64,000 nt of DNA, taken from positions 51,831 to 115,830 of the IMG/VR virus record IMGVR_UViG_3300032323_000716; one strand, written 5' to 3'. This DNA is from a virus. Each line of letters starts with the position of its first letter. The stretch's first letter is position 1. The notes below the pieces were generated by a model. It searched no databases. It had not been told where the DNA came from and saw only the letters and a list, made by a program, of their open reading frames with translations. The translations under genes were made by a program, and so were the position numbers. Below, piece after piece: positions 47,436-61,714 of this stretch.

Positions 47436-47439
47436 TTGA

Positions 47440-48289: not shown

Positions 48290-48479
48290 CTTCAGTGATC
48301 TCTGTGTGTTGATCCATTACTGCTGCGATCATTAGTTGATGTATGACCACAGCATCCTTCTTATAGTCTGCGGGCATACTGTTAATAAGAGTCTGCACAT
48401 GTTCTTGACTCTCACAGTTCCAAAGCAGATCAGCAATCTGATACTGTTGATGAGTTAGGCCTTCTAGAGTAATAGTCAT
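48255..48479 (-). CDS. hypothetical protein
   Basis: 74-aa coupled ORF. Confidence 0.55.
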   Translation of the reverse strand: MTITLEGLTHQQYQIADLLWNCESQEHVQTLINSMPADYKKDAVVIHQLMIAAVMDQHTEITEDVKDCISRICS

Positions 48480-48700
48480 TAACTGTCCTTGATCTTCTTG
48501 AGTATGTTCTCACGTTCTAAACGATCTACTTCTGTTTGATATACGAAACGAATACCATATGCAAAGAACACCACAGCCCATGCTAGGCCTACCCATTCTA
48601 TGCCCAAGTAGTGAACAGCCACTGAGTTAGCAGCACCCAGCAGCAGTGCTGAGGTTGCAAATAAGACTGTGCGTTTTAGTGCTATTTGTTTTAGATTCAT
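48479..48700 (-). CDS. small membrane protein
   Basis: Two hydrophobic segments. Confidence 0.55.
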   Translation of the reverse strand: MNLKQIALKRTVLFATSALLLGAANSVAVHYLGIEWVGLAWAVVFFAYGIRFVYQTEVDRLERENILKKIKDS

Positions 48701-48701
48701 A

Positions 48702-48887
48702 TCAACTGTCCTTAACTAACTCTACACCAATATACATCAACATAAGGCTAGTCACTGTGACGCCAATTGAAGCAATCAGTTCTGAGGTATTCATGCTGGC
48801 TTCTACGCCGCCAACACCAAATCCTGCGCCCACAATGCCCGCAATCACTGCGATCATTCCCACTTTAACTTTGATTAATTCCTGCAT
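48702..48887 (-). CDS. small membrane protein
   Basis: Two hydrophobic segments, GAGAGCGA RBS. Confidence 0.55.
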   Translation of the reverse strand: MQELIKVKVGMIAVIAGIVGAGFGVGGVEASMNTSELIASIGVTVTSLMLMYIGVELVKDS

Positions 48888-48953
48888 CATTCGCTCTCTT
48901 TCTTTGTGTGTATGTGTCAATTATACTGTCAATTCGTTGAGTTGTCAACCAAA

Positions 48954-49274
48954 TTAACGAGGAATACGCACAACAATGCCCTGTGCTGTAGCCACAACTT
49001 CATAGCCCTTGTCTTCTAGAATGCTAACTGCCTGTTTAGAGATCGTTTTATCACGAGCAATTTGGCCTGCAATCTTTACAGCAATAAACTTCTTGCGATA
49101 GTTAATGTATGAGTTAGCATAAGCGTAGGCAGTGTCCAGAATGTCCAGGGCTCGTTGTGCTAGGCACTGCTGCTCCCTAGTGTATGTGCAGGCCATCTCT
49201 CTGTTGCGATAGTGTGCGTTGACTGCTGCTTTGTATGCGTTGTCTTCTGCTGATCGTGTGTTAAGTTGTTTCAT
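48954..49274 (-). CDS. hypothetical protein
   Basis: Own promoter and AGGAGCGC RBS. Confidence 0.6.
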   Translation of the reverse strand: MKQLNTRSAEDNAYKAAVNAHYRNREMACTYTREQQCLAQRALDILDTAYAYANSYINYRKKFIAVKIAGQIARDKTISKQAVSILEDKGYEVVATAQGIVVRIPR

Positions 49275-49328
49275 GTTGCGCTCCTGTTTGTGTATATGTG
49301 TTTATTATAAGGCCGCGAGCCCAAATGG

Positions 49329-49565
49329 TCAACCAAAATAGCGGAATAACCCGCCACAGCATACGGCGATTGCCACTGCGTTGATCAGCATCTGCGGACG
49401 GTTGTTAACACGCACAGTCCAGACGAAGAAGCAAACACCACCTAGCAATCCGAACACAATGTTCCAAGGATGCAGTTCGGGGAAGTAGCTCATGATCACG
49501 TACATGGCCAAGATGTTGGCTGTACCTAACCACTGGATTGTTTCGTCTATGTGTTTGTATGTCAT
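49329..49565 (-). CDS. small membrane protein
   Basis: Three hydrophobic segments; -10 box 6 nt upstream of ATG. Confidence 0.6.
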   Translation of the reverse strand: MTYKHIDETIQWLGTANILAMYVIMSYFPELHPWNIVFGLLGGVCFFVWTVRVNNRPQMLINAVAIAVCCGGLFRYFG

Positions 49566-49596
49566 GTAGTTATTATACGGTCATTTAGCCAAAATG

Positions 49597-49827
49597 TCAA
49601 CCATTTTTCGTGTTGCAGAATTGCCACATCTTTAACTCTGCGCCACGCAGTCCCAGCAGGACTCCCTCGAAGTCCCTGTAGGAGCAGCAGCCTACGATGT
49701 TTGGATATACTCTGTATCCATAGACCTCAACACTCTTTAGAGAGCGTGTGACCGCAGCCTTGGCGGGTCCTGGTTTGGTATAGTACTTGACCAGATTGCC
49801 GTCGTCATCGTAGGTAACCCAGCCCAT
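49597..49827 (-). CDS. hypothetical protein
   Basis: 76-aa coupled ORF. Confidence 0.55.
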   Translation of the reverse strand: MGWVTYDDDGNLVKYYTKPGPAKAAVTRSLKSVEVYGYRVYPNIVGCCSYRDFEGVLLGLRGAELKMWQFCNTKNG

Positions 49828-50063
49828 TAGTCTATGACCTTTACCACTTGATAGCCATAGATCTTCAACTTGCGGATTGCAGCCTGAATCTCTTGATGTG
49901 TGTCGTTGAGGTCATCTAAGCAGTTTTTAACTTCTTTCAAGTTGTCTGCTGTGCAGGTCTGACCTGAGTAGATATGACGGCACTCGTAGTAGCGGTCATC
50001 ATCATCTTGAATCAGTTGGTATGTGCCAAATGTCTTATAGACCGCGATTTCGCCTGCTTTCAT
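49827..50063 (-). CDS. hypothetical protein
   Basis: AAGGAGCGAACT RBS. Confidence 0.6.
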   Translation of the reverse strand: MKAGEIAVYKTFGTYQLIQDDDDRYYECRHIYSGQTCTADNLKEVKNCLDDLNDTHQEIQAAIRKLKIYGYQVVKVID

Positions 50064-50134
50064 AGTTCGCTCCTTTGTTGCTGGTGTAAATGTATTATAC
50101 GGTCTTTTGGATAGCCCGTCAACCCTTAGGGTCT

Positions 50135-50524
50135 TTATACGTTGTTTTTCTGCAACAGTCTGCTGCCGTTATCTTCGGAGATGATTAGGCGAACATTTGT
50201 AAGGTTTTCTTTGAGTCTGTCAATCAGTTGATCACGATCAATTCCCTGACCTAGGAACTGATTGTTGTCCAATCTGTAGGCATAGAGCATGCCGTGGACT
50301 TCTTCGATCTTGATCTCCATGGGAGTCAACGTGGATTCCTCAGCAGCATTCTGTGGATTCTCAGTGGTTAGATCGATGTCGTTATCGCGGGCTAACTTGC
50401 GCAGTTGCTGTTCCGTGACGCCCAAATCACGTAGGATCTCTCTGAAACTCAGGGCCATCCATGCTCGGCTCACGGCGGAACCTAACCAACAACCTACTAT
50501 GAATGCTATAATTAGTTCTATCAT
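50135..50524 (-). CDS. membrane-anchored hypothetical protein
   Basis: N-term hydrophobic helix; TATAAATA-N5-ATG. Confidence 0.6.
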   Translation of the reverse strand: MIELIIAFIVGCWLGSAVSRAWMALSFREILRDLGVTEQQLRKLARDNDIDLTTENPQNAAEESTLTPMEIKIEEVHGMLYAYRLDNNQFLGQGIDRDQLIDRLKENLTNVRLIISEDNGSRLLQKNNV

Positions 50525-50546
50525 ATGAATATTTATAGGTAGGGTT

Positions 50547-50580
50547 AAAAAAGAGGGTGTGGCTGTTATACCACACCCCC
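50547..50580 (-). terminator. rho-independent terminator containing TGT-N12-ACA palindrome
   Basis: GGGTGTGG...CCACACCC followed by T-run on minus strand. Confidence 0.75.
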
Positions 50581-50584
50581 AATG

Positions 50585-50618
50585 TACCCAGAACCAGGAG
50601 CGAACTGTTTACTGGGTA
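50585..50618 (-). ncRNA. candidate anti-RBS hairpin RNA 1
   Basis: Stem TACCCAG/CTGGGTA with apical AGTTCGCTCCTG, complementary to early-gene RBS. Confidence 0.5.
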
Positions 50619-50920
50619 ACTGCTGCTGCTGCCTTCGCGACAGTGGCTTTTGTTGCCTGCGGCTTGGCCACAGGATTCTTCTTGGCTACGTAAGTGATCG
50701 CGTCTGCGACTGCCTTACGGCCTTTTGCGAAATCAGTCTCAGTCAAATGCTGCGCGATTTCGCCTTTGGTCATCTCGCGGGGAAGATCCGCCAACTCGAT
50801 GTCTGTGTGGCCGTTCTTGGCCAAGATCTTGATGCGCATCACATCATTGGCAAAACGAATCTTAGTCTTACCATCTAGTGTTGAAACACCTGCTACTGCA
50901 AACTTTTTATCTGTTGCCAT
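50609..50920 (-). CDS. small basic protein with Lys/Ala-rich tail (putative nucleic-acid binding)
   Basis: 103 aa, C-term AKKNPVAKPQATKATVAKAAAA; own promoter; RBS lacks GGAGCGA. Confidence 0.6.
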   Translation of the reverse strand: MATDKKFAVAGVSTLDGKTKIRFANDVMRIKILAKNGHTDIELADLPREMTKGEIAQHLTETDFAKGRKAVADAITYVAKKNPVAKPQATKATVAKAAAAVTQ

Positions 50921-51000
50921 TTTGTTACCTCTTTATGTGTGTGTAAAATAAACTACTCGAGTTACTATTATAACATCGAACTTACCAAAGCGTCAACCAT

Positions 51001-51183
51001 TCATTTACCCAAATTAGACACTTGAATGGTTACCGCTTCTTTCTCGTCTAAGGCCGCGATAAACTCATCGTCAAAGACCAGATCCTGCATGTTCATGTCG
51101 ATCATCTGTTCGACACGAGCCAAATCACTGTCGCCGTCGCTGGCGCAGATGATCTCAAATTGAAATTTAAAGATTCTGGGCAT
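51001..51183 (-). CDS. hypothetical protein
   Basis: 60-aa ORF with AAGGAG RBS. Confidence 0.5.
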   Translation of the reverse strand: MPRIFKFQFEIICASDGDSDLARVEQMIDMNMQDLVFDDEFIAALDEKEAVTIQVSNLGK

Positions 51184-51460
51184 CTTCCCAAAACTCCTTG
51201 CGTAATTGAAACATCACTAACGCTTCCTCTTTAAGGTATACAGCACTCTTTTCAGAGTCCCAAGCCCAAACAGGTTGCACTCCATCGAAGTTCTCAGGTC
51301 GAGCCAATGCTTGCTCTGCTGATGGGCCAAACTGTGTCCAAAGCCAGTTGCGGACTCGAATCCACTGTTTGATCCTGACCTGTGGACCACCGTAGAACTC
51401 AACCCTATGCGTAAAGAAGCCATAGCCGTTGTAGTTGCGGTTCAGTTTGACCACATGCAT
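51167..51460 (-). CDS. hypothetical protein
   Basis: 97 aa, W..W..FGP motif. Confidence 0.55.
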   Translation of the reverse strand: MHVVKLNRNYNGYGFFTHRVEFYGGPQVRIKQWIRVRNWLWTQFGPSAEQALARPENFDGVQPVWAWDSEKSAVYLKEEALVMFQLRKEFWEDAQNL

Positions 51461-52089
51461 TATGCTACCACCAAACCTAACTTCTTGCGTTCTTCAACGC
51501 CTTCTGTGATCCAATCTGTGAGTTCTTCATCATCTTCTTGGAACTCACGGATGCCTTCGGAGATGCAGAACATTTCATCTAGATCGCTAGGGATAGTTGC
51601 TTCTACTTCATCGGCACTCATGTCACCGATCTCGTAGTAGTCATCACTGCCCTCTTCCCAAATACCACAGTAGGCCATGCCTGACTCATAGTAATAGGCA
51701 CGAACAGTGTAGCCCTGCTCGTAGAGTTCTTGATAGACTCCCTGTGGTGGGCTCCACGCTGAATCAAACGATGCAGTCATAGTCTTACCACTATCGGAAA
51801 CATCAGCCTGACTGTCGCCACCGCAGTCCCACTTAGTGCCCCAACGGCTGACCTGATAGTCATACCAGTCCTTGGCACCGTAGAGTTCAACATTGCGTTC
51901 CATCTGTGCTTCGTGTGCATCACGCTCTGGACCCTCAGGAACAGAACCTGACACTGTTTCTGTGAGATCCTTGGGTGTAGGAATCACATGACTGCAGAAC
52001 TCACCGTTATTCAAAGCATCTGCCAAAGCACGGATCTTCGCAGGATCTTCGTGGCTTATTTCTACAAAGTTGTTGCACCAATTAGGCAT
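51460..52089 (-). CDS. DUF1281/YubB-like ferredoxin-fold protein
   Basis: MPNWCNN, WYD...WGTKWD, FDSAWSPP, YYESGM. Confidence 0.7.
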   Translation of the reverse strand: MPNWCNNFVEISHEDPAKIRALADALNNGEFCSHVIPTPKDLTETVSGSVPEGPERDAHEAQMERNVELYGAKDWYDYQVSRWGTKWDCGGDSQADVSDSGKTMTASFDSAWSPPQGVYQELYEQGYTVRAYYYESGMAYCGIWEEGSDDYYEIGDMSADEVEATIPSDLDEMFCISEGIREFQEDDEELTDWITEGVEERKKLGLVVA

Positions 52090-52098
52090 ATTCGCTCC

Positions 52099-52284
52099 TT
52101 AATCGTAGTCAGCGGAACTCAATTCAACAGCACCTTCGATCTCGCTGTATAGATCGTAGATCTTCTGGACGATGATACGCTTCTGTCCAGGACGAACGGG
52201 CAGTTCTGACACCAGTTCTTCGATCTCATCCAATTTGGTATCGATGTCCTGGATAACCATATCTAGTTCACTCATCGCACTCAT
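52099..52284 (-). CDS. acidic helical hypothetical protein
   Basis: AGGAGAGCGA RBS, own promoter. Confidence 0.55.
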   Translation of the reverse strand: MSAMSELDMVIQDIDTKLDEIEELVSELPVRPGQKRIIVQKIYDLYSEIEGAVELSSADYD

Positions 52285-52294
52285 ATCGCTCTCC

Positions 52295-52483
52295 TTAGTA
52301 GATGTTAGTATTATACAACCGTTCATCCAAATTGTCAACCAAATTCTGTTCAATCTCTGTGGCGCTTTTGCCACAGATCTGTTCCATGGTCCTTAGAATC
52401 TTTCGCTGTGCCATGGGGGTAGTTTCAGGGGATTCCAAGGCTTCTACAGCCCGTTTGATATATTGGAACTCTTCTAGGGTCAT
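52295..52483 (-). CDS. hypothetical protein
   Basis: Coupled ORF whose C-term reads through next promoter. Confidence 0.45.
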   Translation of the reverse strand: MTLEEFQYIKRAVEALESPETTPMAQRKILRTMEQICGKSATEIEQNLVDNLDERLYNTNIY

Positions 52484-52776
52484 ACCGTCACCACCTTCCA
52501 TGGATCTACTTGGTCTGAATTCTTGATCTGTTTGGCCAACAGTTCGTTCTTTTGATTCTGTGCAGTGCGTAGCAGTTGCTCACGGATCTCTGCCCTGCGA
52601 GCCTTAGGCAGTTCAGAGATAACTTCTGCCAACACTGATGAGAAATAACCACAGGCGTAAGCATAGGAACCATCGCAGTTCTCACGTGAAGCCTGCTCGA
52701 CTTCGTTAATGGCGTTGCGAGTAGACCGGCTCTCGTCTAGGTATTCGTTAAACTTCTCTTGTGCTGATTTAGGCAT
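52480..52776 (-). CDS. hypothetical protein
   Basis: AGGAGAGCGA RBS, own promoter. Confidence 0.6.
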   Translation of the reverse strand: MPKSAQEKFNEYLDESRSTRNAINEVEQASRENCDGSYAYACGYFSSVLAEVISELPKARRAEIREQLLRTAQNQKNELLAKQIKNSDQVDPWKVVTV

Positions 52777-52813
52777 TTGTCGCTCTCCTTAGTATGTGTA
52801 TATTATAGCACCA

Positions 52814-53035
52814 CTAAACCAAATTGTCAACCGATTTGTAGTCTTTAACCATACGGTACAAAGGGTCAATTTCTTCCGAGTTTTCCAATTCAAAGTCATC
52901 GGAGAGCCAATCGATCCATTCCTCGAGGACAGGGCTGGCATCCCGGACCAACTCACGTGCTTCCTCCTCGGATTCTGCTTCTACCTGAAAGGTTTCAGCC
53001 ACGATGCTGTTGCGCCAGAATGTAAACTTTTTCAT
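52814..53035 (-). CDS. acidic hypothetical protein
   Basis: VEAESEEEARE motif. Confidence 0.55.
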   Translation of the reverse strand: MKKFTFWRNSIVAETFQVEAESEEEARELVRDASPVLEEWIDWLSDDFELENSEEIDPLYRMVKDYKSVDNLV

Positions 53036-53358
53036 ACAGACTCCACGTGCTTACAAGCACCACGGAACGTGAACCCCGGGCAGGTACAGGTCTTTTCCTC
53101 TACATTAACGTAGTAGGAATTGCCCTTAGACCCCTTGACTTCCACAGTTGCATTCTTGGCTGCATTCTTTGGGGATTTAAATGCTCCGGAGTCTGCTTTC
53201 TCAAACTTTCGGCCCCTCTTATCGAATCCTTTGATTCCTGATTTGAAATAGAAAGGATCCGTGGTGCCCTGCTTGATATAGGCAATCAAAGTAGTGCCAT
53301 CCAACAGGTAAACGTGGGGAGGAAACTGTCCCCCTGTGGTCTCACGCAGTGCTTCCAT
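53032..53358 (-). CDS. SWIM zinc-finger protein
   Basis: GSKGNSYYV...CTCPGF..RGACKH. Confidence 0.75.
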   Translation of the reverse strand: MEALRETTGGQFPPHVYLLDGTTLIAYIKQGTTDPFYFKSGIKGFDKRGRKFEKADSGAFKSPKNAAKNATVEVKGSKGNSYYVNVEEKTCTCPGFTFRGACKHVESV

Positions 53359-53624
53359 CAACGGTAATCCTTCTTGTCACCAAAACGCTCGTTGTAGTCG
53401 TAGCCCGCCATGTATTCAGCGATCTCGTCTTGGGTAAGGTTCTCTACAGGCTCACCTTGGTAGGACCCCATTGGATACCAATGAGGATCGCGTCTACGAC
53501 CGTAGTATGAGTCTGCTGATCCACGATCATACAGGCCACCGTGGCGCTTACGATCGAACTGTGGGCCTTTAAGGGCACGGATCACAGCCTTTTGTTCATC
53601 TTCAGTCATTAAATGTATATACAT
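53358..53624 (-). CDS. hypothetical protein
   Basis: HGGLYDRGSADSYY, EY.AGY motifs; AGGAGCGAA RBS. Confidence 0.6.
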   Translation of the reverse strand: MYIHLMTEDEQKAVIRALKGPQFDRKRHGGLYDRGSADSYYGRRRDPHWYPMGSYQGEPVENLTQDEIAEYMAGYDYNERFGDKKDYR

Positions 53625-53633
53625 CTTCGCTCC

Positions 53634-53801
53634 TTATTTCATTGGGCCGTTAAACAATCCACCTAGCGAACCAAAGGCAAACTTCCACTCTAGTTCACGG
53701 CGTTCTTCTGCAGTTGCGTTGGGGAACTCTTTACGCACAAAGTTCTGGATGTCTTTGAGGATAAGTCCTGCTACGTCTTTTGCTGGAATAATTGATGCCA
53801 T
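53634..53801 (-). CDS. hypothetical protein
   Basis: Start ATG53801 after AGGAGCGAAC. Confidence 0.55.
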   Translation of the reverse strand: MASIIPAKDVAGLILKDIQNFVRKEFPNATAEERRELEWKFAFGSLGGLFNGPMK

Positions 53802-53872
53802 TTGTTCGCTCCTTCTATTCACTATACCTATAGTATAACACCGAAAGTCCAAACTGTCAACCAAAAACTGCC

Positions 53873-54052
53873 TTAGCAGTCCGGGTCAAAACTAGCCCAC
53901 TCCTCTTGCTCCGTAGGCTGCCCGTCATCTGCATCAGCAGCCTCTGCTTCCAAACAGTAAACAACCTCTAGGATTTGGTTGCCCAAATAGTTCTTACCAG
54001 CAGCAAACAACACATCCGCTACCGCTTCCAACTGTTCAATTTCCTGTTGCAT
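53873..54052 (-). CDS. acidic hypothetical protein
   Basis: Start ATG54052; C-term DGQPTEQEEWASFDPDC. Confidence 0.55.
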   Translation of the reverse strand: MQQEIEQLEAVADVLFAAGKNYLGNQILEVVYCLEAEAADADDGQPTEQEEWASFDPDC

Positions 54053-54140
54053 AATTAACTCCTTATCGTTTACTATACCTATAGTATAACGCCAGTTGTC
54101 CAAAATGTCAACCAAAATAAAAGCCCTTTCGGGCTTAGGG

Positions 54141-54488
54141 TTAATCCAATCTTGATCCTGCGTAGGCTTCGAAGCCATACCTCTTGAACACCGCAGCAGC
54201 CGCAGCAGCCCCGGCCTCGAGTGTGTCCACGTTCTGGCAGCCGAATCCGCTGGGGTTATACATCTGCAGGCCGCCTGTGTATGAAGGACGAATATTGCAC
54301 TCTTTCAGTGCGCGGCCAATCTTTGTGTTACCTTTGACACCGTAGATGTTCACCCAGGCAAAGCCGCAGGCGAATTGATCCTTACCACCCAGGCGCATAT
54401 GGAAATACTCTGCTGCCGCAGCATACGCAGCAGTCTTGGCTTCGTTGACAATTGCTGGGATCTGCTCAGGGGTTGCTGTGATAGTCAT
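54141..54488 (-). CDS. hypothetical protein
   Basis: CGFAWV and C-term SRLD motifs; AGGAGCGAA RBS. Confidence 0.6.
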   Translation of the reverse strand: MTITATPEQIPAIVNEAKTAAYAAAAEYFHMRLGGKDQFACGFAWVNIYGVKGNTKIGRALKECNIRPSYTGGLQMYNPSGFGCQNVDTLEAGAAAAAAVFKRYGFEAYAGSRLD

Positions 54489-54566
54489 CTTTCGCTCCTT
54501 TGTGTTAAACAATACCCATAGTATAGCACCATGGGTATCAAATGTCAACCAAAATGTAGAAAGACC

Positions 54567-54893
54567 CTAGTGGCGTCTGGGTTGCTTTAGCAGTTCCGCT
54601 TCTTTACGCAGTCTGCCGGCCTGTTTATACATCTCGTCGGCACTCCTGCGCAGTTCTTCGGCCCGAGCCTGGCTGAGACTGGTCCCACCGAACTCACGTG
54701 AAATGTAGTAGTCAACGAGACGGTTCTTGATCATAGTAGGCAGATTGTCGCCGTGATCTTCAGGTACGATAAAGCGAACAGGGCAATGACCCCATCCGCC
54801 TTTTTCTATGTATTCTGCATAATAGCGTCTATGATCCTTGTTAGTTGGATCAAACGCCACTAAAGGACGCATTAGATATTCTAATCTGCTCAT
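54567..54893 (-). CDS. hypothetical protein
   Basis: FDPTNKDHR, WG.CPVRF; TATAAATA-N6-ATG. Confidence 0.6.
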   Translation of the reverse strand: MSRLEYLMRPLVAFDPTNKDHRRYYAEYIEKGGWGHCPVRFIVPEDHGDNLPTMIKNRLVDYYISREFGGTSLSQARAEELRRSADEMYKQAGRLRKEAELLKQPRRH

Positions 54894-54894
54894 G

Positions 54895-55068
54895 TCAACT
54901 ATTTATAGTGTTAAATGGGTCACAGTCCATGACATAGCAGGCCTCGGGCTGATCACTGACTACTTCTTTAATAGTCTCTTTGATATCCTGCCAGTCTGCG
55001 TCTTCGTCCATGAGCACACCGTCTTCGTCATAGAAAGGATCTTCAAACAACATTCCGAATCCACTCAT
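54895..55068 (-). CDS. small acidic protein (57 aa)
   Basis: Manual translation MSGFGMLFEDPFYDEDG...DPFNTINS; coupled to upstream ORF. Confidence 0.45.
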   Translation of the reverse strand: MSGFGMLFEDPFYDEDGVLMDEDADWQDIKETIKEVVSDQPEACYVMDCDPFNTINS

Positions 55069-55190
55069 TTAACGGTCTCCTTCATGACTTCTTGGGTTTT
55101 ACCTACGGCCTTATCAATGGCGTTTGCTACTCCGGTAACGCCTACAGTGGCCACGAACATACCTGCTACGAATGCAAGAAGAACTTTCAT
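55065..55190 (-). CDS. small membrane/secreted peptide (41 aa)
   Basis: MKVLLAFVAGMFVATVGV...; AGGAGCGA RBS. Confidence 0.55.
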   Translation of the reverse strand: MKVLLAFVAGMFVATVGVTGVANAIDKAVGKTQEVMKETVK

Positions 55191-55200
55191 ATATCGCTCC

Positions 55201-55293
55201 TTAACCTACAAAGATCCAATAAGAACCTACAGCCACCGCATAGACAGCGACAGCGTAGCCCAGTTGCTTTACATCTTCTAACAGCCAATCCAT
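55201..55293 (-). CDS. small membrane peptide (30 aa)
   Basis: MDLAVRRCKQLGYAVAVYAVAVGSYWIFVG; AGGAGCG RBS, own promoter. Confidence 0.45.
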   Translation of the reverse strand: MDWLLEDVKQLGYAVAVYAVAVGSYWIFVG

Positions 55294-55402
55294 ATACCGC
55301 TCCTTCCTTACCATATGTATATTATACGATCAATCTACCCAGTTGTCAACCGCCTCTTAGCAGCGGGGTCAGTGGCTAAAAAGCCACACCCGCCGGCACT
55401 CG

Positions 55403-56596
55403 TCAAGCGGACTCTGTTTCCTTCTCGTAGATCACAGTCTGACCAAAGGGTGCTTCTGCTTGTGTATTACCCTTGACGATAAAGATTGTATCGCAGTAGT
55501 CCTCGTTGCCCCAACCACCACAAGGGTAGCCGTCTGTGAACATAATGAACTTCTTAGGCTGGATACCGTTCTCTTCCATGAATGTCCAGTTGACTTCGAA
55601 GTCTGTGCCACCACCGCCCATAGGTTCGTAGTTAAGCAGGTCCTCACTGTTGTCGTGTGTGATTCTTTGGAAGTTATAGATCTCTGTGTCAAAGCACCAT
55701 AGGCTAATAGCAAAGTCCTCGTACTGGTCCATGATGCCCTTGATCTCTGAAAGAAATACAGTTGCATCCTCTTCACCAATAGAACCTGACATATCAATAG
55801 AAACGGCCACGTCAATAGTAGTTGCTTCTTTCATGCCCGGAAGGATTGCGCCACTGTGCATACTCTTACGGTTAGGGCGTGTAAAGGAGTAGTCGTTGCG
55901 GATGATGCTTTGGATCTCTTGACGAACAAGAGTGCGCCAGTCCATCTTAGGCTCAGTCAATGACTTGATCATACGCATAATGCCTGCGGGAGTCTTACCT
56001 GCACCAGCGGCCGCGGCACTCTGGATCATAGCCTGCTTGATCTCATCACGGATCTTCTGTGCTTCCTCTTTGCTCATAGTGGGCTTCTTGCCATCACCCT
56101 CTTCACCAGGAGCACCCTCTTTGATATGCTCGTCCAGCAGTTCACCGATCTGCTTGAGCAGTTCAGGCATACTGATCTTCTCTGCTTTCTCATAGAGATC
56201 ATCGTAGATCTCTTCCCAGGCCATACCACGGTATTTGCTGTCTAAGCAGATCTTAACTTCAGTGATCTTCTCACCAATACGCTCATCTACGAGGATCTGG
56301 TTGACTGCAAAGTCCTGTGCGATATTAGACAGTTGACGATCACGGCTACCAACACGACCGAAGTGATCTAGGATACAGTGGAGGATTTCGTGTGCGAACA
56401 AGAACTCTAGTTTCTTAACGCTGAGTTTCTCTACGAATTTTGTAGAATAATAAAAGTCACGGCCGTTAGTTGCGGCGGTTGGGCACCAGTCATCTGCTCT
56501 GACCAGTTTCATACGAGTTGCCATGTTGCCGAAGAACGGCGCCTTGAGCAGTAGGCCTACTCGTGCAGTTGTTAGTTTCTCTACGATTGGATCCAT
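55403..56596 (-). CDS. metallopeptidase-like + vWA domain protein (DUF2201-type)
   Basis: TAATNG, HEILH zincin motif, DMSGS MIDAS, GGGTDF, FTDG. Confidence 0.85.
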   Translation of the reverse strand: MDPIVEKLTTARVGLLLKAPFFGNMATRMKLVRADDWCPTAATNGRDFYYSTKFVEKLSVKKLEFLFAHEILHCILDHFGRVGSRDRQLSNIAQDFAVNQILVDERIGEKITEVKICLDSKYRGMAWEEIYDDLYEKAEKISMPELLKQIGELLDEHIKEGAPGEEGDGKKPTMSKEEAQKIRDEIKQAMIQSAAAAGAGKTPAGIMRMIKSLTEPKMDWRTLVRQEIQSIIRNDYSFTRPNRKSMHSGAILPGMKEATTIDVAVSIDMSGSIGEEDATVFLSEIKGIMDQYEDFAISLWCFDTEIYNFQRITHDNSEDLLNYEPMGGGGTDFEVNWTFMEENGIQPKKFIMFTDGYPCGGWGNEDYCDTIFIVKGNTQAEAPFGQTVIYEKETESA

Positions 56597-56652
56597 TAGT
56601 CGCTCTCCTTACTATGTATATATTATAGCACCTTCAGGCACCCTTGTCAACC

Positions 56653-56687
56653 AAAAAAAAAGGGTGTTGCGTTTCCACAACACCCCC
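56653..56687 (-). terminator. rho-independent terminator containing TGT-N12-ACA palindrome
   Basis: GGGTGTTG...CAACACCC plus T9 on minus strand. Confidence 0.8.
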
Positions 56688-56703
56688 TGCTATGGGCGAG
56701 GTC

Positions 56704-57789
56704 TTAATTCTCCATAGCACTGAGAACATACTTGCCGAACCGCTTGTGGAACTCGTCGAACGAGTCCATCTTAGTTGCATCCAACGGCAAGTTGTAATTA
56801 GTAAGGGCAGTCTTGGCACCCATCACTACCAACTCTGTTGGGAAGTTCTGCATCATATACTGGAAGAAGCGATCAGCCATTGCATCCCAACCTTTGACCT
56901 TCTTCTCTGCACGATCCTTCAACTCATAGCAAAGGCTAACTGTCAAAGAATACATCGCAGACACTTCCTTGATCTGCAGGTCCTTGACCTTACCATCGAG
57001 GATGTCATCTGCCTTAGGCAGTTTACCAGCGATCTTACGGTGAGCCATGAACTTATTGCCCAAGCCATCACCAACGGCACCCGCGATCAAGTTCTGCAGG
57101 GTATCGTTATCAACATCGTCGTCAGTGAGCAGATCACTGACAAAGCACCATGAACGAGGAGTTGCAAACGCCTTAGACGCTGACTTAGGATCAAAGTCGT
57201 AGAGGTCTTGCTTGGCAAAGCCTACATAACCTACAACCTCAGGGTGGATCTTGTTGAGCGTAGCCCAATCTTGCCAGTCATCAAAGTCCACTTTCATTTC
57301 CAAGTGAACGAAGCGGTTAGCCAACGGAGCAGGCATACGATAGGTAACACCACGGTCACCTTCACGGTTACCAGCGGCGACCACGTCAACGCCCTTAGGC
57401 AATACATAGGTGCCTACTCGACGGTTAAGGATCAACTGATAGGCCGCGGCCTGAACAGCCGGAGGAGCAGAGTTCAACTCATCCAAGAAGATGATAGCAG
57501 TAGACTCTGGGTCCATAGGCAGTTCGCTTGGGGGAGCCCAAACCATCTTGCCCTGCTCTGAGTTGTAATAAGGGATACCTTTAATGTCAGTAGGTTCCCA
57601 AAGGGCTAGGCGAACGTCAATGACTTCGCGACCTGCGTCATCACCGATCTGCTTGACGAGATCGGATTTACCAATGCCTGGAGGGCCCCACAAGAATGCA
57701 GGACGGCGAACTGCCAGGGCTTTACGGATTGCCTTTTTGGCTGACTTAGGGCCAACTTGGCGGACGGAAATATCAGTGCTCTTGCTCAT
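56704..57789 (-). CDS. MoxR-like AAA+ ATPase
   Basis: GPPGIGKS, FLDELN, AAGN, PLANRF, TPRSW. Confidence 0.9.
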   Translation of the reverse strand: MSKSTDISVRQVGPKSAKKAIRKALAVRRPAFLWGPPGIGKSDLVKQIGDDAGREVIDVRLALWEPTDIKGIPYYNSEQGKMVWAPPSELPMDPESTAIIFLDELNSAPPAVQAAAYQLILNRRVGTYVLPKGVDVVAAGNREGDRGVTYRMPAPLANRFVHLEMKVDFDDWQDWATLNKIHPEVVGYVGFAKQDLYDFDPKSASKAFATPRSWCFVSDLLTDDDVDNDTLQNLIAGAVGDGLGNKFMAHRKIAGKLPKADDILDGKVKDLQIKEVSAMYSLTVSLCYELKDRAEKKVKGWDAMADRFFQYMMQNFPTELVVMGAKTALTNYNLPLDATKMDSFDEFHKRFGKYVLSAMEN

Positions 57790-57865
57790 TAAGACCTCGC
57801 TTTAAAAAATTAAACTAACTATCAATCTCTCAGTGTTAATAGTATAACACCAACCGGTTCATTTG

Positions 57866-58501
57866 TCAACCGATGATTTTCACAAAATTTAACTGTGTTG
57901 TTTTATTGCCACGTTGTTGCTTGACCTTGCCCTTGATACGGACTGTGCCTTCTAGGGCGGAACTGAACCAGAAATCAATGATGCTTTCTCCCATACGGGC
58001 ATCGATCTTGTGCTTTTGATACTCGTTGCTGAATCGTGTGCGGATCACTTGGATTTCGCCTACGATCACATCCCCAGGCTGCCCCTGCAGTTGCTCTGAA
58101 GTGAAGATCTCACGTTTGAGTTCAGTCTGTGCTTGATCGCGTCTGGCCACATCAGGCAAGCAGCCTATCACAGCAAAGTCGTACATATCCTTGCCAGTGA
58201 ACTCTTCTTTGGTAGCGATACGCATAGCAGTCTGCTGGAACTCGTTGAGTTGTCCTGAGATAGCCTTAAAGGTATAGGTTTTGAAATGATCCCGGGCGCA
58301 GCGTCCTGCAGCGATATCTGATTCTGTGGCGATGTTTAGGGTACCTTCACGCAGCCATGTCTTGATCATGACTTTGTTAGGACGCTTTATGGGATTCTTT
58401 TGATCCACTTCGAAGTTCCAAACATCTTCCTTGATGTAGCCACCGTTGATACGATCGGCTGCAACAGCCAGGCCCCATACTTGATCTGCAGTGAAGTTCA
58501 T
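57866..58501 (-). CDS. hypothetical protein (possible C-terminal OB fold)
   Basis: Start ATG58501 after AGGAGCGAAC; IKGKVK...TQLNFVK C-term. Confidence 0.55.
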   Translation of the reverse strand: MNFTADQVWGLAVAADRINGGYIKEDVWNFEVDQKNPIKRPNKVMIKTWLREGTLNIATESDIAAGRCARDHFKTYTFKAISGQLNEFQQTAMRIATKEEFTGKDMYDFAVIGCLPDVARRDQAQTELKREIFTSEQLQGQPGDVIVGEIQVIRTRFSNEYQKHKIDARMGESIIDFWFSSALEGTVRIKGKVKQQRGNKTTQLNFVKIIG

Positions 58502-58599
58502 TGTTCGCTCCTTCATAATGTACTTATTATACGATCTCTAGCCCAATCTGTCAACCGGAGGAGTGCCGGCGGGTGTGGCGAAAATACAACACTAGGACC

Positions 58600-58630
58600 A
58601 AAAAGAAAGGCCGCATATAGCGACCTTTCT
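58600..58630 (-). terminator. rho-independent terminator
   Basis: AGAAAGGTCGC-TATAT-GCGGCCTTTCT-TTTT on minus strand. Confidence 0.75.
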
Positions 58631-58668
58631 CAAACTCCGCCCCGGGAGCGAATCGGCTTGGAATTTGA
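58630..58668 (-). ncRNA. candidate anti-RBS hairpin RNA 2
   Basis: Stem TCAAATTCC/GGAGTTTGA, inner CCG/CGG, loop ATTCGCTCC complementary to early-gene RBS. Confidence 0.5.
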
Positions 58669-58679
58669 AGGGGGTTTAC

Positions 58680-58955
58680 TTAAACAGTAATGCCCATTGC
58701 CTTGGCTTTGTAACCAAGAGCAACGATTTCACGGCTTGGCATGCCCAACTCATACTCAGTAACAGTAACGCCATTACCTGCTGTGCGAGTGTTGCTGTAA
58801 ACAGCATAACCGTTTTGACGGATGCGGCTTGCTTCAGCGGCCAAGTTCTTAACACCGAAACGCTTGCTGGCTTCTGCTTGTGTCAACTTGTCACCAGACT
58901 TGAGTGCTGTAAAAACCTTGAATGTCTTTGTTTCTTTAGAAAATGTATATTTCAT
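58680..58955 (-). CDS. small basic winged-HTH-like protein
   Basis: LT..EA..RFGV.NL.A..S.IR..GY pattern followed by beta-wing; RBS lacks GGAGCGA. Confidence 0.6.
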   Translation of the reverse strand: MKYTFSKETKTFKVFTALKSGDKLTQAEASKRFGVKNLAAEASRIRQNGYAVYSNTRTAGNGVTVTEYELGMPSREIVALGYKAKAMGITV

Positions 58956-59046
58956 TTGAATGTTTCCTTTAAATTTAAAGCTGATAAAATGTTATTCAGC
59001 GTCCGTTAATTATAGCAACCTTGCGATCTAAATGCAACCATCAAGA

Positions 59047-59238
59047 TTACCGTTTTACCTTGACACTGGGTCCAATCAAAGAACCCAGGATCAAAGCGGC
59101 TGCCCACGTCCAAAATGTGTAGGGGATAGCCAACACAGGGAACAGGGTGTTCAGGGCCCAAATAGTCAGCAACGGACCCAGAATGATGAGGAATAGGATT
59201 AGTGCCACTATCCCTAGAAATTTAACGACTGTGCCCAT
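59047..59238 (-). CDS. small membrane protein
   Basis: Highly hydrophobic, start ATG59238. Confidence 0.6.
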   Translation of the reverse strand: MGTVVKFLGIVALILFLIILGPLLTIWALNTLFPVLAIPYTFWTWAAALILGSLIGPSVKVKR

Positions 59239-60338
59239 TAGTAGGCTCCTTTCATAACAGTGACCTTGGCCATGTTCTGCCAATTAGCAGGGAAACTCTT
59301 ACGCAGATCTGCTACTTTCAGTACAGTACGCAATGACAGTTCACGCATAGTACCACGGTGATCATTGATGAATTTAACTACCTCGTCCTTGGCAATGTCT
59401 TCTAACTCGTATGAGTCCAACATGCCGTCCTTAACGATCTGCTGGATACGCAGGATCTTCTCGCGATCTGTGTCCATGCGCAGGTCGATATAATGACAGC
59501 GTGACTCTAAGGCACTCAGGTGATCCTGCAGTTTCTTAGAACGCACATTCTCAAACTTCAAGTTTGTGATAAAGATAGCACCACCCTTGAACTCAAACTT
59601 GTCCGGGATACCTTCGCTACGCAGGAGTCGCGAGTCCGTGTTCCACGAGATAGTACGCTTCTTAGAACTGTCCAAAGCGGCCTTAAGGATGTTAAGCGCA
59701 ATGTCGTCCAAAAGAATGCTGTCGCAGTCATCGAACACAAGGATGTTCTTAGCGTCTGAGAACTGATAGAGTTTTGAGTACAAGCCAATGGCACTCATAG
59801 CACCCTTGACGATCTCATAGCGTGGCTTACGCTCGCCCAAGGTGTTAAACAGGTCGTCTTTGGCAAGTACTTCTTCAACACCAAACGACTTACCCACACC
59901 TGGAGGGCCTGTGACGATCATAGCACGGACATCGCCTGCTTTCACAGCCTTGGTCATGTCCTTGAGGATCTCAAAGCGCATACGGGTACGCTCAATGATC
60001 TCTTCGTCAGTTTCGTGTGCTACAGCCTCGTCTGAGACTTTGATCTGTGTAAAGTCCGTGATCTCGGCACCCTTGACAGTTTTAGATTTCAGTGCAGTCA
60101 GCATGCTTACTCCTTGAGGGATGGGTTTAGCAGAACCCGCGACATTGTAAGCACCCTGCTCACAACGGATACGGATTGAACGATCTGGGAAACCGGGCTG
60201 GCTACCGCCCTCTACAGTGACATAGCCTTCGCCACCCTTAGAAACTTTGAAGTCTTCTACTAGTTTAAAGGTCATGCCTGCAACATTAGTAGGCTGGCCC
60301 TTAATGTTGTAATAGCCCTCTGTGAAAGTAATATACAT
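59238..60338 (-). CDS. AAA+ / P-loop ATPase
   Basis: GPPGVGKS, VFDDCD, FITN, SRC; start ATG60338 after AGGAGCGAAC. Confidence 0.8.
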   Translation of the reverse strand: MYITFTEGYYNIKGQPTNVAGMTFKLVEDFKVSKGGEGYVTVEGGSQPGFPDRSIRIRCEQGAYNVAGSAKPIPQGVSMLTALKSKTVKGAEITDFTQIKVSDEAVAHETDEEIIERTRMRFEILKDMTKAVKAGDVRAMIVTGPPGVGKSFGVEEVLAKDDLFNTLGERKPRYEIVKGAMSAIGLYSKLYQFSDAKNILVFDDCDSILLDDIALNILKAALDSSKKRTISWNTDSRLLRSEGIPDKFEFKGGAIFITNLKFENVRSKKLQDHLSALESRCHYIDLRMDTDREKILRIQQIVKDGMLDSYELEDIAKDEVVKFINDHRGTMRELSLRTVLKVADLRKSFPANWQNMAKVTVMKGAY

Positions 60339-60424
60339 CTGTTCGCTCCTGTGTATGTTCATCATTCTATTATTATAATGCCAATGCTCGCAATTGTCAA
60401 CCACTAACCCTATGCCCTGTAGGG

Positions 60425-60844
60425 TTATTCTTCTTCTGCTGTTAGGTGCTCAACGGTGTTTTGGGCTAGGGCATCGGACAGCAGTACCAAACCCCCTTTG
60501 ATCAAGCCGGGCACATCGTAGACGGCACCCACGTACCACTCCCCGTCCTTCATCACGTAGTAATACTCACCGTGACAGCCTTCAACCTGCTCGAGGAACT
60601 CTTCAAAGGTATGTGCCACTGAGTAGCCCACGTTCTCTTCGCCGCGATCTGTGTAGAAGTTCATTTCCTCTACAGTCTCTTTGACACCACTGTTGTCCCC
60701 ACGTGCAACTAGGGCATTGGCCTTCACTGAGTCATAGTGTTTGTGCAGCAATTCACCGGTGTATTCCAAATAGCCATCGTAGTGGCAGTAGACGCTTTTG
60801 CAGACTGTGCCATGCATGACACCCACTCGTGAACGTGTACCCAT
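60425..60844 (-). CDS. hypothetical protein
   Basis: MGTRS, YCHYDGY, EYYY motifs. Confidence 0.6.
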   Translation of the reverse strand: MGTRSRVGVMHGTVCKSVYCHYDGYLEYTGELLHKHYDSVKANALVARGDNSGVKETVEEMNFYTDRGEENVGYSVAHTFEEFLEQVEGCHGEYYYVMKDGEWYVGAVYDVPGLIKGGLVLLSDALAQNTVEHLTAEEE

Positions 60845-60899
60845 TTCGTCGCTCCTTTGTTAAACAATAAGTCTATTATACTGCCAAAATAAAGCCCTG

Positions 60900-61292
60900 T
60901 CAACCCCACTGGGCTTCGAAGGCTGCTTCCTGTTCCTGCAGCATAGCAGCAAGATCTACGCCAAACTTGGCACTCCAAGCCTTGAGGAACTTTTTGCCCA
61001 CATCGCAGGAAACGTAGTCGTCGCCCTGCATGCCCTGCTCGCTGTAGGAAACATCTGAGCCCTGCAGGCCGTGTGTGTCCAGGAACTGCCTAAGTTCGCT
61101 GATGAACTGTTTGTCCGTGTAGATCAGACCCTGCTTGTTAACATCCCACGAGTCTGTGTGGAAATAGACACGTAGTTCACCAAAGTCCAGTTCATCGCTG
61201 ATATAGCCCAGACGCATGTCTGTGATACGTACAGCCTGTTCTGTGTTAGACCAATAGCCGCCACCGCCTGTGTGCATGATAACTTCTGACAT
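60900..61292 (-). CDS. hypothetical protein
   Basis: GLIYTD, YSEQGMQG motifs. Confidence 0.6.
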   Translation of the reverse strand: MSEVIMHTGGGGYWSNTEQAVRITDMRLGYISDELDFGELRVYFHTDSWDVNKQGLIYTDKQFISELRQFLDTHGLQGSDVSYSEQGMQGDDYVSCDVGKKFLKAWSAKFGVDLAAMLQEQEAAFEAQWG

Positions 61293-61662: not shown

Positions 61663-61714
61663 AGTTCGCTCCTATGTTGAATTAGCGAGGGCTCTCTCGT
61701 TGGCCCTCTCCACG

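Follow-up and report, generated by a model that had tools for sequence, protein, structure and literature searches.

Does the early region of a giant phage encode RNA elements that act on its own genes through a shared ribosome-binding site (RBS)? The window analysed here, a 64,000-nt stretch of the IMG/VR record IMGVR_UViG_3300032323_000716, comes from an uncultured jumbo phage (~350 kb) and makes up its early region; two small minus-strand genes in the window end in terminator-linked hairpins with loops complementary to the RBSs of surrounding genes (Table 1). A first-pass annotation had proposed that these hairpins form a multi-target sRNA switch, perhaps aided by the upstream protein, silencing early genes at the early-to-middle transition. 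Overall, this interpretation is partly supported: we tentatively favour, at a little under an even chance, a conserved family of 3′-end hairpins in which the loop is an anti-RBS seed that pairs with tagged early RBSs and lowers their translation.

Table 1. Features of the two hairpin loci and of the tagged RBSs (window coordinates; sequences of minus-strand features are given as read on that strand).
Feature	Position	Strand	Details
Gene 1 promoter	50967..50996	-	TTGACG, 18 nt, TATAAT, TG extension
Gene 1, 103-aa basic protein	50609..50920	-	RBS AAAGAGG, without target motif
Hairpin 1	50585..50618	-	7-bp outer stem, internal loop, 3-bp inner stem CAG/CUG, loop UUCGCUC
Hairpin 1, 5′ arm	50618-50612	-	UACCCAG
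Hairpin 1, UAAA	50611-50608	-	contains gene 1 stop codon (50611-50609)
Hairpin 1, inner stem	50607-50605	-	CAG
Hairpin 1, loop	50604-50598	-	UUCGCUC
Hairpin 1, inner stem	50597-50595	-	CUG
Hairpin 1, GUU	50594-50592	-	
Hairpin 1, 3′ arm	50591-50585	-	CUGGGUA
Candidate anti-RBS seed 1	50597..50604	-	UUCGCUCC
Intrinsic terminator 3′ of hairpin 1	50547..50580	-	11-bp stem, then T6
Gene 2 promoter	59009..59037	-	TTGCAT, 17 nt, TATAAT
Gene 2, 91-aa winged-helix protein (HTH_39)	58680..58955	-	RBS AAAGGAAAC, without target motif
Hairpin 2	58630..58668	-	9-bp outer stem, internal loop, inner stem CCG/CGG, loop AUUCGCUCC
Hairpin 2, 5′ arm	58668-58660	-	UCAAAUUCC, then AAG
Hairpin 2, inner stem	58656-58654	-	CCG
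Candidate anti-RBS seed 2 (loop)	58653..58645	-	AUUCGCUCC
Hairpin 2, inner stem	58644-58642	-	CGG, then GGC
Hairpin 2, 3′ arm	58638-58630	-	GGAGUUUGA
Intrinsic terminator 3′ of hairpin 2	58598..58629	-	
AAA-ATPase gene (phrog_1250)	59238..60352	-	directly 5′ of gene 2 and hairpin 2
Target-type RBS, 119-aa gene	61665..61672	-	GGAGCGAA; net predicted binding -8.5 kcal/mol
Weaker target-type RBS	60849..60855	-	GGAGCGAC
Target-type RBS, AAA-ATPase gene	60342..60349	-	CAGGAGCGAAC; net predicted binding -12.1 kcal/mol
Target-type RBS, 211-aa gene	58504..58511	-	140 nt 3′ of hairpin 2; predicted -11.7 kcal/mol
Target-type RBS, 115-aa gene	54491..54498	-	
Target-type RBS, 55-aa gene	53805..53812	-	
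Target-type RBS, 88-aa gene	53626..53633	-	
Target-type RBS, 209-aa gene	52091..52098	-	9-nt match to seed 2
Target-type RBS, 78-aa gene	50066..50073	-	11-nt match to seed 1
Further tag variants	~55194, 56600, 52780, 52288, 49278		forms GGAGCGAU, GGAGAGCGA, GGAGCGCA

The window contains 10 copies of the motif GGAGCGAA, where 0.99 would be expected (none of 100 shuffles reached 10), and the remainder of the 115.8-kb contig contains none. Eight copies lie on the minus strand, every one 2–5 nt upstream of an ATG, i.e. as an RBS; the other two, on the plus strand, coincide with the loops of hairpins 1 and 2. RBSs of the GGAG(AG)CGA type precede ~16 early genes of the window. The loop is, as annotated, the exact complement of this clade-specific extended RBS, with matches of 11 nt at 50064, 61663 and 60341, 10 nt at 53804 and 58503, and 9 nt at 52090. 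Both genes carrying a hairpin have the promoters first described (TTGACG-N18-TATAAT and TTGCAT-N17-TATAAT) and lack the target RBS, an avoidance which holds in every lineage examined. Two descriptions need amending. Hairpin 1 is not strictly downstream of its ORF, because its 5′ arm comprises the last codons and stop of gene 1. Both proteins are basic as stated (pI 9.8 and 9.9 for genes 1 and 2), and gene 2 encodes a winged-helix protein; for gene 1 only charge points to nucleic-acid binding, and comparison of its AF2 model (pLDDT 82) with the PDB gave no match to a known fold.

It is highly improbable that the loop copies are ordinary plus-strand RBSs or a coincidence. A 114-aa plus-strand ORF (58665–59009) does begin 20 nt past the plus-strand GGAG of hairpin 2, however neither loop copy has a start codon at RBS distance, the hairpin 1 motif falls within a plus-strand ORF (50582–50878) rather than before it, and no plus-strand promoter was found nearby. 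Stems vary freely among relatives, hence there is no conserved plus-strand reading frame, and conservation in more than 100 contigs excludes chance.

Both hairpin sequences read exactly as annotated, and in RNAfold the claimed folds are those of minimum free energy; with terminators included, the z-scores are -4.7 (hairpin 1) and -2.9 (hairpin 2). The loops are predicted to be accessible rather than buried, as opening the seeds would cost 0.2–2.7 kcal/mol; seed 2 lies at the low end (0.2 kcal/mol), with per-base unpaired probabilities of 0.77–0.99. Once the inner stem opens, the complementarity of seed 1 reaches 11 nt (AGUUCGCUCCU), and its computed duplex with AGGAGCGAACU has an energy of -18.2 kcal/mol. 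Net predicted binding was -7.4 to -12.1 kcal/mol for tagged RBSs, -0.3 to -1.8 kcal/mol for the carrier genes' own RBSs (AAAGAGGUAA for gene 1), and -1.5 to -4.1 kcal/mol for most other untagged RBSs, with the exception of the GGAGCAAG RBS at 61292 (-8.0 kcal/mol). Since the carrier RBSs are not complementary and the loops are free in the predicted folds, pairing within the window would have to be intermolecular, i.e. in trans.

More than 100 related viral contigs from uncultured giant phages share the loop, (A)UUCGCUCC, almost without change. There the hairpins close early transcripts at their 3′ ends, in three settings: downstream of gene 1 (~20 distinct lineages), downstream of gene 2 (~30) and in the 3′UTR of the AAA-ATPase gene (~70). 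No Rfam family matches the element. In relatives the hairpins are often tandem, some phages having two to three with unrelated stems, and the last one is in many cases itself the terminator, as a U-run follows directly. Constraint on the loop far exceeds that on the stem, the "variable stem, fixed loop" pattern which the first-pass annotation had suggested looking for. Inner stems in the AAA-ATPase 3′UTR covary (CUG/CAG, CGG/CCG, GUG/CAC, CCA/UGG and GCG/CGC). For the outer helix of hairpin 2, the covariation score was 0.389, compared with 0.142 for shuffled data (0 of 500) and at most 0.17 when partners were slid. Arm-swap tests gave p values of 2e-9, for the covarying arms of hairpin 1 orthologues in ~20 distinct relatives (native arm duplex -11.1 versus -5.7 kcal/mol swapped), and 1e-6. 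In hairpin 2, eight of nine outer-helix pairs show compensatory changes, while the 17-nt core CCGAUUCGCUCCCGGGG is the same in all of 27 distinct relatives.

Such covariation of unrelated outer stems would not be needed in a double-stranded DNA site, and we consider it improbable that the 15-bp quasi-palindrome CCGATTCGCTCCCGG is a DNA operator or REP-like module, used in either orientation, with the RNA hairpin incidental. A module of this kind would fit with the adjoining winged-helix gene and with relatives in which the reverse complement of the 15-mer, CCG-GGAGCGAAU-CGG, lies right before the start codons of unrelated genes as an RBS within a small hairpin. It would also fit with the antisense strand folding as well as the sense strand, owing to which G–U pairs give no clue to the relevant strand. 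However, 59 of 60 unique instances lie on the gene sense strand with a U-run next, the behaviour of an RNA element, and the RBS copies stand at a constant distance from the ATG without CCG/CGG on either side. Whereas REP elements have stems that are alike between copies, those of the phage hairpins differ.

Hairpins and tagged RBSs also occur together. In a comparison of 28 related contigs, a GGAGCGA-N2-7-ATG cluster with sufficient flank was always accompanied by hairpins on the same strand (contigs G016 and G025 break off where their tag cluster ends) and distant relatives had neither, a clade-wide presence/absence that may stem from one or few evolutionary events, the statistics ignoring phylogeny. 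At 120 loci, picked by the 15-mer alone, 347 RBS tags were on the same strand as the hairpin versus 17 on the opposite strand. The expectation that the loop would track the RBS motif fails in one lineage, G014, which counts in part against the first-pass annotation: it keeps two UCGCUCC loops, but most of its early genes have GGAGCA(C/A) as RBS and only one has GGAGCGA. Where it persists without the matching RBS extension, the loop may therefore bind something else, and this lineage fits either a fixed multi-target seed with shifting targets or a loop with a different binding partner.

Such a partner could be a protein or the ribosome, the hairpin serving as a 3′-end recognition site for a termination, read-through or stability factor and the RBS complementarity being a by-product or having some other purpose. 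Besides G014, the context downstream of gene 2 agrees with this, as the inner stem CCG/CGG and the next two G residues are also invariant there, an invariance that base pairing of the loop would not by itself require and that counts against the anti-RBS reading. Tandem hairpin pairs are moreover common, always immediately before a terminator or as one, and a small winged-helix gene often adjoins the element. We nevertheless regard a recognition site as unlikely, as exact complementarity over 8–9 nt to the RBS tag used by this very clade would be very improbable by chance and inner stems of very different sequence are tolerated. Further, in some relatives single-stranded copies of the seed (GGUUCGCUCC, for instance) immediately precede the hairpin on its 5′ side, which is easier to reconcile with base pairing than with a protein that recognises a particular shape. 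The analysis yielded no candidate binder, the gene 1 product having no known fold, and the features of the lambda nut site are not found in the phage hairpins.

Most relatives have the hairpins in the 3′UTR of the AAA-ATPase gene itself, the commonest home of the element and probably the ancestral one. RBS class is gene-specific and conserved: among orthologues in distinct lineages GGAGCGA was found in 0 of 19 gene 1 RBSs and GGAGC in 0 of 36 gene 2 RBSs, whereas 74 of 102 AAA-ATPase RBSs carry GGAGCGA compared with 397 of 1072 other genes (37%; odds ratio 4.5). Because the carrier genes never have the tag and the AAA-ATPase gene often does, pairing of the loop with RBSs explains the element best, as judged from sequence. 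Full-length AAA-ATPase mRNAs from diverse relatives paired the RBS with the 3′UTR loop in 8 of 11 minimum-energy folds, with a probability of 0.5–0.99. This pairing and the frequent tagging of the AAA-ATPase RBS make cis action a serious part of the story, and in relatives the loop probably also pairs in cis, as far as the folding models indicate.

Closure of an mRNA between its 5′ and 3′ ends is known to control translation or decay in icaR of Staphylococcus aureus and hbs of Bacillus subtilis. The phage hairpin could similarly be, in essence, a cis element of the AAA-ATPase unit that pairs with its own RBS, closes the message and limits translation or controls decay, all other matches being secondary. 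Beyond the tag enrichment and the folds, this draws on the ~70 lineages in which the first hairpin often abuts or overlaps the AAA-ATPase stop codon, and on the synteny of hairpin 2, which only gene 2 separates from the AAA-ATPase gene in the window. We doubt that it is the whole explanation, however: gene 1, which hairpin 1 terminates, has a separate promoter and lacks a complementary RBS in every lineage examined, and for the 1.77-kb AAA-ATPase–gene 2 transcript of the window itself a cis pairing probability of only 0.1 was predicted. Long-range fold predictions are unreliable, ribosomes load before the 3′UTR is synthesised, and a purely cis element leaves the tag on ~15 other early genes unexplained.

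If the loop acts as an anti-RBS seed, the unpaired (A)UUCGCUCC would base pair with the extended Shine-Dalgarno sequence GGAGCGAA(C/U) on ~16 early genes. The predicted duplex of 8–11 bp would have about twice the stability of AAGGAG:CUCCUU pairing with 16S rRNA, hence it should compete with the 30S subunit and reduce translation of tagged messages. In many relatives a hairpin in the 3′UTR of a tagged AAA-ATPase message could also close that message on itself. The candidate hairpins would be transcribed from early promoters simultaneously with their proposed targets, and shut-off would therefore require hairpin-bearing 3′ ends to outlive the messages, which we assume. Pairing inside infected cells, its outcome as repression and not protection, and its timing are all inferences from the sequence. 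The conserved loop thus points to a form of RNA control, not described before, that would slow early protein synthesis.

The two minus-strand hairpins at the 3' ends of gene 1 (encoding a basic 103-aa protein) and gene 2 (encoding an HTH_39 winged-helix protein) are real and conserved, and we found no earlier description of them. Their sequences are exactly those of the first-pass annotation, and RNAfold returns the folds described there for both; the placement of hairpin 1 directly after its ORF, however, does not hold for the 5' arm, which is formed by the terminal codons of gene 1 together with its stop. Both loops carry a seed complementary to the extended early-gene ribosome-binding site (RBS) GGAGCGAA, of GGAGCGA type and termed the tag here. 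It occurs ten times in the window where about one copy is expected, with no further copy in the remaining contig. Eight of the ten copies are minus-strand RBSs lying 2-5 nt ahead of an ATG, and the only plus-strand copies, at the 8-mer and 7-mer level alike, are the two loops. The 9-11-nt loop/RBS matches quoted previously are correct. Loop complements in the window comprise eight exact 8-mers and about eight variants at translation initiation regions, and we count about 16 genes with GGAG(AG)CGA-type RBSs, where about 14 early targets had been suggested; the accompanying shut-off of translation stands as a proposal only.

Coordinates of the hairpins and associated features (window positions, or positions in the related viral locus, L, that is named)
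Feature	Position	Strand	Remarks
Early-gene block	48000-64000	-	
Structural and replication parts	1-48000		
129-aa gene	50135-50524	-	past the terminator of hairpin 1
Terminator of hairpin 1	50547-50580		
Hairpin 1	50585-50618	-	3' end of gene 1
Gene 1	50609-50920	-	
MoxR-type ATPase gene	56704-57789	-	
Motif G(A)CCGGCACUCC	58560-58570	-	between the terminator of hairpin 2 and the next promoter (-35 box)
Terminator of hairpin 2	58598-58629		
Hairpin 2	58630-58668	-	downstream of gene 2
Gene 2	58680-58955	-	
AAA-ATPase homologue (phrog_1250)	59238-60338	-	immediately 5' of gene 2 and hairpin 2
Two tRNA genes	62530-62683	-	within the early region
Terminator with anti-SD or diverged loop, L149 (contig G017)	~1290-1330		next to seed hairpin
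Terminator with anti-SD or diverged loop, L427			next to seed hairpin
Reverse-oriented core, L152	~427-441	-	
Reverse-oriented core, L142	~8498	-	
Reverse-oriented core, L179	7015		
Reverse-oriented core, L181			
Reverse-oriented core, L182			
Reverse-oriented core, L202			

The window makes up the final 64 kb of an IMG/VR viral contig that measures 115.8 kb; the completeness of the contig is estimated at 33%, so the whole phage would have about 350 kb. Judged by its MoxR-type and AAA ATPases (40-51% identity), the nearest cultured relative is the Pseudomonas jumbo phage PA5oct, and both the RBS tag and the hairpins are absent from the PA5oct syntenic region. The early-gene block has numerous small ORFs behind short CA-rich leaders, two tRNA genes and about 20 TTGACA-17-TATAAT promoters that are perfect or nearly so. 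Its G+C content is 47%, where the structural and replication parts have 34-41%. The MoxR-type ATPase gene has a distinct RBS of its own, AGCGAGGUCUUAA-AUG, kept in many lineages, a further sign of gene-specific RBS types in these phages.

In predicted structures the seed is unpaired and accessible, with an unpaired probability of 0.77-0.99 for hairpin 2 and opening costs of 0.2 kcal/mol for hairpin 2 and 2.7 kcal/mol for hairpin 1. Duplex energies are -12.4 kcal/mol for the 8-bp match and -18.2 kcal/mol for the 11-bp match, compared with -6.2 kcal/mol for AAGGAG:CUCCUU. Including opening costs, predicted net binding is -7.4 to -12.1 kcal/mol for tagged RBSs and -0.3 to -1.8 kcal/mol for the host genes' (gene 1 and gene 2) own RBSs. 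A genome-wide duplex scan that included stem bases was noisy, and its top five sites were all RBSs. The seed is thus complementary to the initiation regions of several mRNAs, as in loop-seed anti-SD RNAs.

To follow the elements beyond the window we fetched homologues from viral contigs, 49 loci for gene 1 and at least 177 for gene 2; 80 of the latter were retained. About 20 distinct lineages (protein identity 64-88%) keep CCG-AUUCGCUCC-CGG (or CAG-UUCGCUC-CUG) downstream of gene 1, and the outer stem of the hairpin 1 orthologues tracks the changing C-terminal codons of the gene. Downstream of gene 2, a 17-nt core is invariant in 27 distinct sequences and the outer stem is variable. A variable stem around a fixed loop had been anticipated and is what we see: the loop is kept while outer and inner stems vary with compensation, so conservation is higher in the seed than in the helices around it, which covary. 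A whole-segment arm-swap test was blurred by terminator sequence, and an arm-only duplex test was used instead, giving -11.1 kcal/mol for native versus -5.7 kcal/mol for swapped arms (p 2e-9) and -9.9 versus -6.6 kcal/mol (p 1e-6). In a covariance-model alignment, compensatory changes were found at eight of nine outer pairs, and the covariation score was 0.389 versus 0.142 in shuffles (0/500) and at most 0.17 with partners slid. Pairing cells made up 86% of this alignment versus 70% in shuffles, a comparison that somewhat favours structure because the alignment was fitted to the model. Sense and antisense folding energies did not differ. Some relatives carry single-stranded extra seed copies immediately 5' of the hairpin.

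Two other origins of the motif were rejected. Plus-strand ORFs were dismissed since neither loop copy has a start codon at RBS spacing and the stems are free to vary. A REP-like palindrome was dismissed as the stems are unrelated between copies and 59 of 60 unique hairpin instances lie in gene (sense) orientation; the 15-mer hairpin core (inner stem plus loop) does occur in relatives in reverse orientation, serving as an RBS.

Loop and tag are associated across the related viruses. Among GGAG-type RBSs in 6-kb loci, GGAGCGA accounts for 209 of 544 where the loop is present and for 7 of 159 where none was seen, the seven coming from one locus with a variant loop and two truncated loci. In 28 larger contigs, every tagged-RBS cluster with enough flank has same-strand hairpins, with two contigs (G016 and G025) breaking off at the cluster. 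In loci selected only by the 15-mer, 347 tags lie on the same strand and 17 on the opposite one; some of these loci, a minority, are chance matches in unrelated G+C-rich phages. Tag and hairpins are both missing from the distant relatives, one of them a 97% complete genome.

The RBS class is a property of the gene. As first proposed, the host genes lack the target RBS: the tag is found in 0 of 19 gene 1 lineages and 0 of 36 gene 2 lineages, compared with 74 of 102 for the AAA gene and 397 of 1072 for other genes (counts without phylogenetic correction). The observed classes, GGAGCGAA, GGAGCA and an AGGAAA type, are each conserved gene by gene. On whether the loop tracks the RBS motif the lineages give a mixed picture: the seed is near-constant across them, and its presence or absence co-occurs with that of the tag across clades. 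One lineage, G014, however, keeps two hairpins with the 7-nt loop UCGCUCC although, of its 24 early RBSs of GGAG type, 10 read GGAGCA(C/A/G) and one reads GGAGCGA; orthologues of genes tagged in the window are untagged there. The loop therefore predates the RBS extension or is under tighter constraint. This pattern would fit a multi-target seed, and could equally reflect a loop with another partner. The latter would be in keeping with an element recognised by a protein, a reading that we consider improbable. The stretch GGAGCGAACA is, we assume, conserved in the 16S rRNA (helix 24, 5' strand) of Actinobacteria, Bacilli and some other groups, with Proteobacteria presumably carrying GGAGCAAACA there; the GGAGCGA and GGAGCA classes differ at the same position as these variants, which may be coincidence.

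In most lineages of the phage group the hairpins lie in the 3'UTR of the AAA-ATPase gene (phrog_1250), which has one to three same-loop hairpins in about 70 distinct lineages. Their inner stems differ yet stay complementary (CUG/CAG, CGG/CCG, GUG/CAC, CCA/UGG and GCG/CGC). The first hairpin frequently abuts or overlaps the stop codon, and the last is often directly followed by a U-run, hence the last hairpin is then itself the terminator. In some relatives the terminator hairpin adjoining the seed hairpins displays the canonical anti-SD UUCCUCCCC in its loop, in others a diverged CUAGGCUCC, with GCUCC alone common to all variants.

This arrangement raises the question of whether the element acts purely in cis. 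In icaR (S. aureus) and hbs (B. subtilis) the 3'UTR holds an anti-SD motif that can pair with the message's own SD, and AAA-type transcripts of the relatives have just this layout and fold accordingly in silico: motif and complementary SD share one transcript in 74 of 102 cases, and in full-length AAA messages the RBS is predicted to pair with a 3'UTR loop in 8 of 11 diverse relatives, with probabilities of 0.5-0.99. An AAA-gene 2 read-through transcript in the window could likewise hold both motif and complementary SD. The same calculation on this 1.77-kb transcript, however, gave a cis pairing probability of only 0.1, the hairpin 1 message never has the tag, and the monocistronic messages of gene 1 and gene 2 contain no complementary SD. 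Unlike icaR and hbs, the element is also repeated at several transcript ends, including messages with a non-complementary RBS (gene 1 and gene 2), and its complement is common to about 16 genes. Because AAA-gene 2 pairing is low, the hairpin 1 message is untagged and both window loops stay open in the predicted folds of their own messages, any pairing in this genome must be largely intermolecular. We regard a purely cis-acting element as unlikely.

In several relatives the hairpin core recurs in reverse-complemented form, as CCG-GGAGCGAAU-CGG, 0-5 nt ahead of the ATG of unrelated genes. Products of these genes include a secreted CsgF-like protein (about 155 aa), a membrane protein (about 90 aa) and a further secreted protein (683 aa). 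In most cases (G/A)TAAATA(C), resembling a T4-type late promoter, lies 10-16 nt upstream. The reverse-oriented core may be an RBS shown in a loop, and as such a perfect loop-loop (kissing) partner for the 3' hairpins. Its position directly ahead of unrelated start codons could equally hint at a module acting at the DNA level, an explanation that we consider highly improbable for the hairpins.

Lambda-type nut sites place boxA and boxB between an early gene and a terminator, and the hairpins share with them a small conserved-loop hairpin, a preceding small HTH gene, a following intrinsic terminator and the loop CGCUC as in boxA. A nut site was nevertheless rejected: the loop is 7-9 nt and the inner stem 3 bp, overlap with boxA is limited to CGCUC, and the boxA consensus CGCUCUUUA and the 5-bp stem with GNRA-like pentaloop are missing; the loop is moreover complementary to an RBS, which nut sites are not.

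Searches with Rfam covariance models across 46000-64000 (E-value limit 5) recovered the two tRNAs only and no family for the hairpins. Among deposited phages, megablast with the region returned nothing and blastn with the hairpin 2 stretch only terminator-like pieces. The gene 1 product, conserved in at least 49 viral contigs, has a confident AlphaFold model (core pLDDT >90, beta-beta-alpha-beta-alpha-alpha); it belongs to no Pfam or PHROG family and had no match above Z 3.1 with Foldseek against the PDB and a wide VIA search. The 129-aa gene past the hairpin 1 terminator encodes a hydrophobic N-terminus, lacks a Shine-Dalgarno or convincing promoter of its own, and likewise begins a few bases past the terminator in three related loci (L017, L020 and L039), hence its expression may depend on terminator read-through. 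A second conserved motif, G(A)CCGGCACUCC, occupies the same place in at least 12 gene 2 relatives.

Staphylococcal and Bacillus small RNAs (RNAIII hairpins, RsaE/RoxS and UCCC-motif Rsa RNAs) expose C-rich anti-SD seeds in loops. As in these, the seed here is short, pyrimidine-rich, complementary to the SD regions of several mRNAs and far more conserved than the stems. However, those RNAs are cellular and have their own genes, whereas the hairpins are phage 3'UTR/terminator elements of coding messages, known from sequence; and where their seeds target a generic SD, the seed here would aim at an extension specific to the phage (CGAA), with which no pairing by the 16S tail is possible. Phages P1 and P7 encode the c4 antisense RNA, a stem-loop whose loops pair around an RBS and block translation, as is proposed for the hairpins. 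It differs in having a single target operon (icd-ant), in being processed from the same transcript upstream of its target and in serving lysogenic immunity, and neither sequence nor structure is similar. Regulatory RNA that is released from the 3' end of an mRNA or stays there, beside or inside an intrinsic terminator, is also represented by NarS, a 3'UTR-derived base-pairing sRNA of enterobacteria (PMC7038943), and by terminator loops that act 'likely without base-pairing' (PMC11979758), neither of which is phage-encoded or aimed at a common RBS tag. Enterobacterial 3'UTR sRNA seeds are usually single-stranded and Hfq-bound, in contrast to the hairpin loop here. Phage transcriptome papers (PA5oct, PAK_P3, phiKZ-like and 201phi2-1) report small RNAs and no comparable element; sRNA2 of PAK_P3 has an 11-nt match to tRNA T-loops (PMC4933390).

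The closest functional analogue is the T4 RegB endoribonuclease/RegA translational repressor, through which early messages are shut off jointly via their initiation regions. Strong RegB sites have in common the extended early-gene SD GGAGRAYARAA, read by RegB with S1 (PMC3014915), a class tag comparable to GGAGCGAA; the T4 readers are proteins, whereas the reader proposed here is an RNA loop. A RegB-like reader was not detected with Pfam PF10715 in five genomes of the group, a search in which the control matched nowhere either.

The most economical reading is that an anti-RBS seed is shown at the 3' ends of early transcripts. The seed's partner would be the GGAGCGAA tag, reached in trans (necessarily so in the window) and, on the AAA-type messages of relatives, in cis; we put this trans-capable pairing at only slightly short of an even chance. 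The effect is assumed to be repression, and its timing and any protein helper are what we infer. That these phages sort their genes by RBS tags, one of them read by an RNA loop at early 3' ends, is possible, if doubtful. On this reading loop and tag would be an SD/anti-SD pair of the phage's own, open to only partial pairing by the host 16S tail, and tagged messages would be silenced by accumulating early 3' ends, or by their own 3' end once transcribed, as an RNA-only and self-timing equivalent of T4 RegA/RegB.

To our knowledge, nearly all that is known of post-transcriptional control in lytic phages concerns proteins (RegA, RegB and gp32), and we know of almost no catalogued phage small RNA with a known target. 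The hairpins are a deeply conserved RNA motif outside Rfam that spans a large group of jumbo phages, uncultured and from freshwater, and whose evident candidate target is the RBS common to a temporal gene class. If confirmed, they would provide a natural orthogonal SD/anti-SD pair, useful in synthetic biology, and would mean that a phage can tag a class of genes by an extended Shine-Dalgarno and read that tag by RNA.
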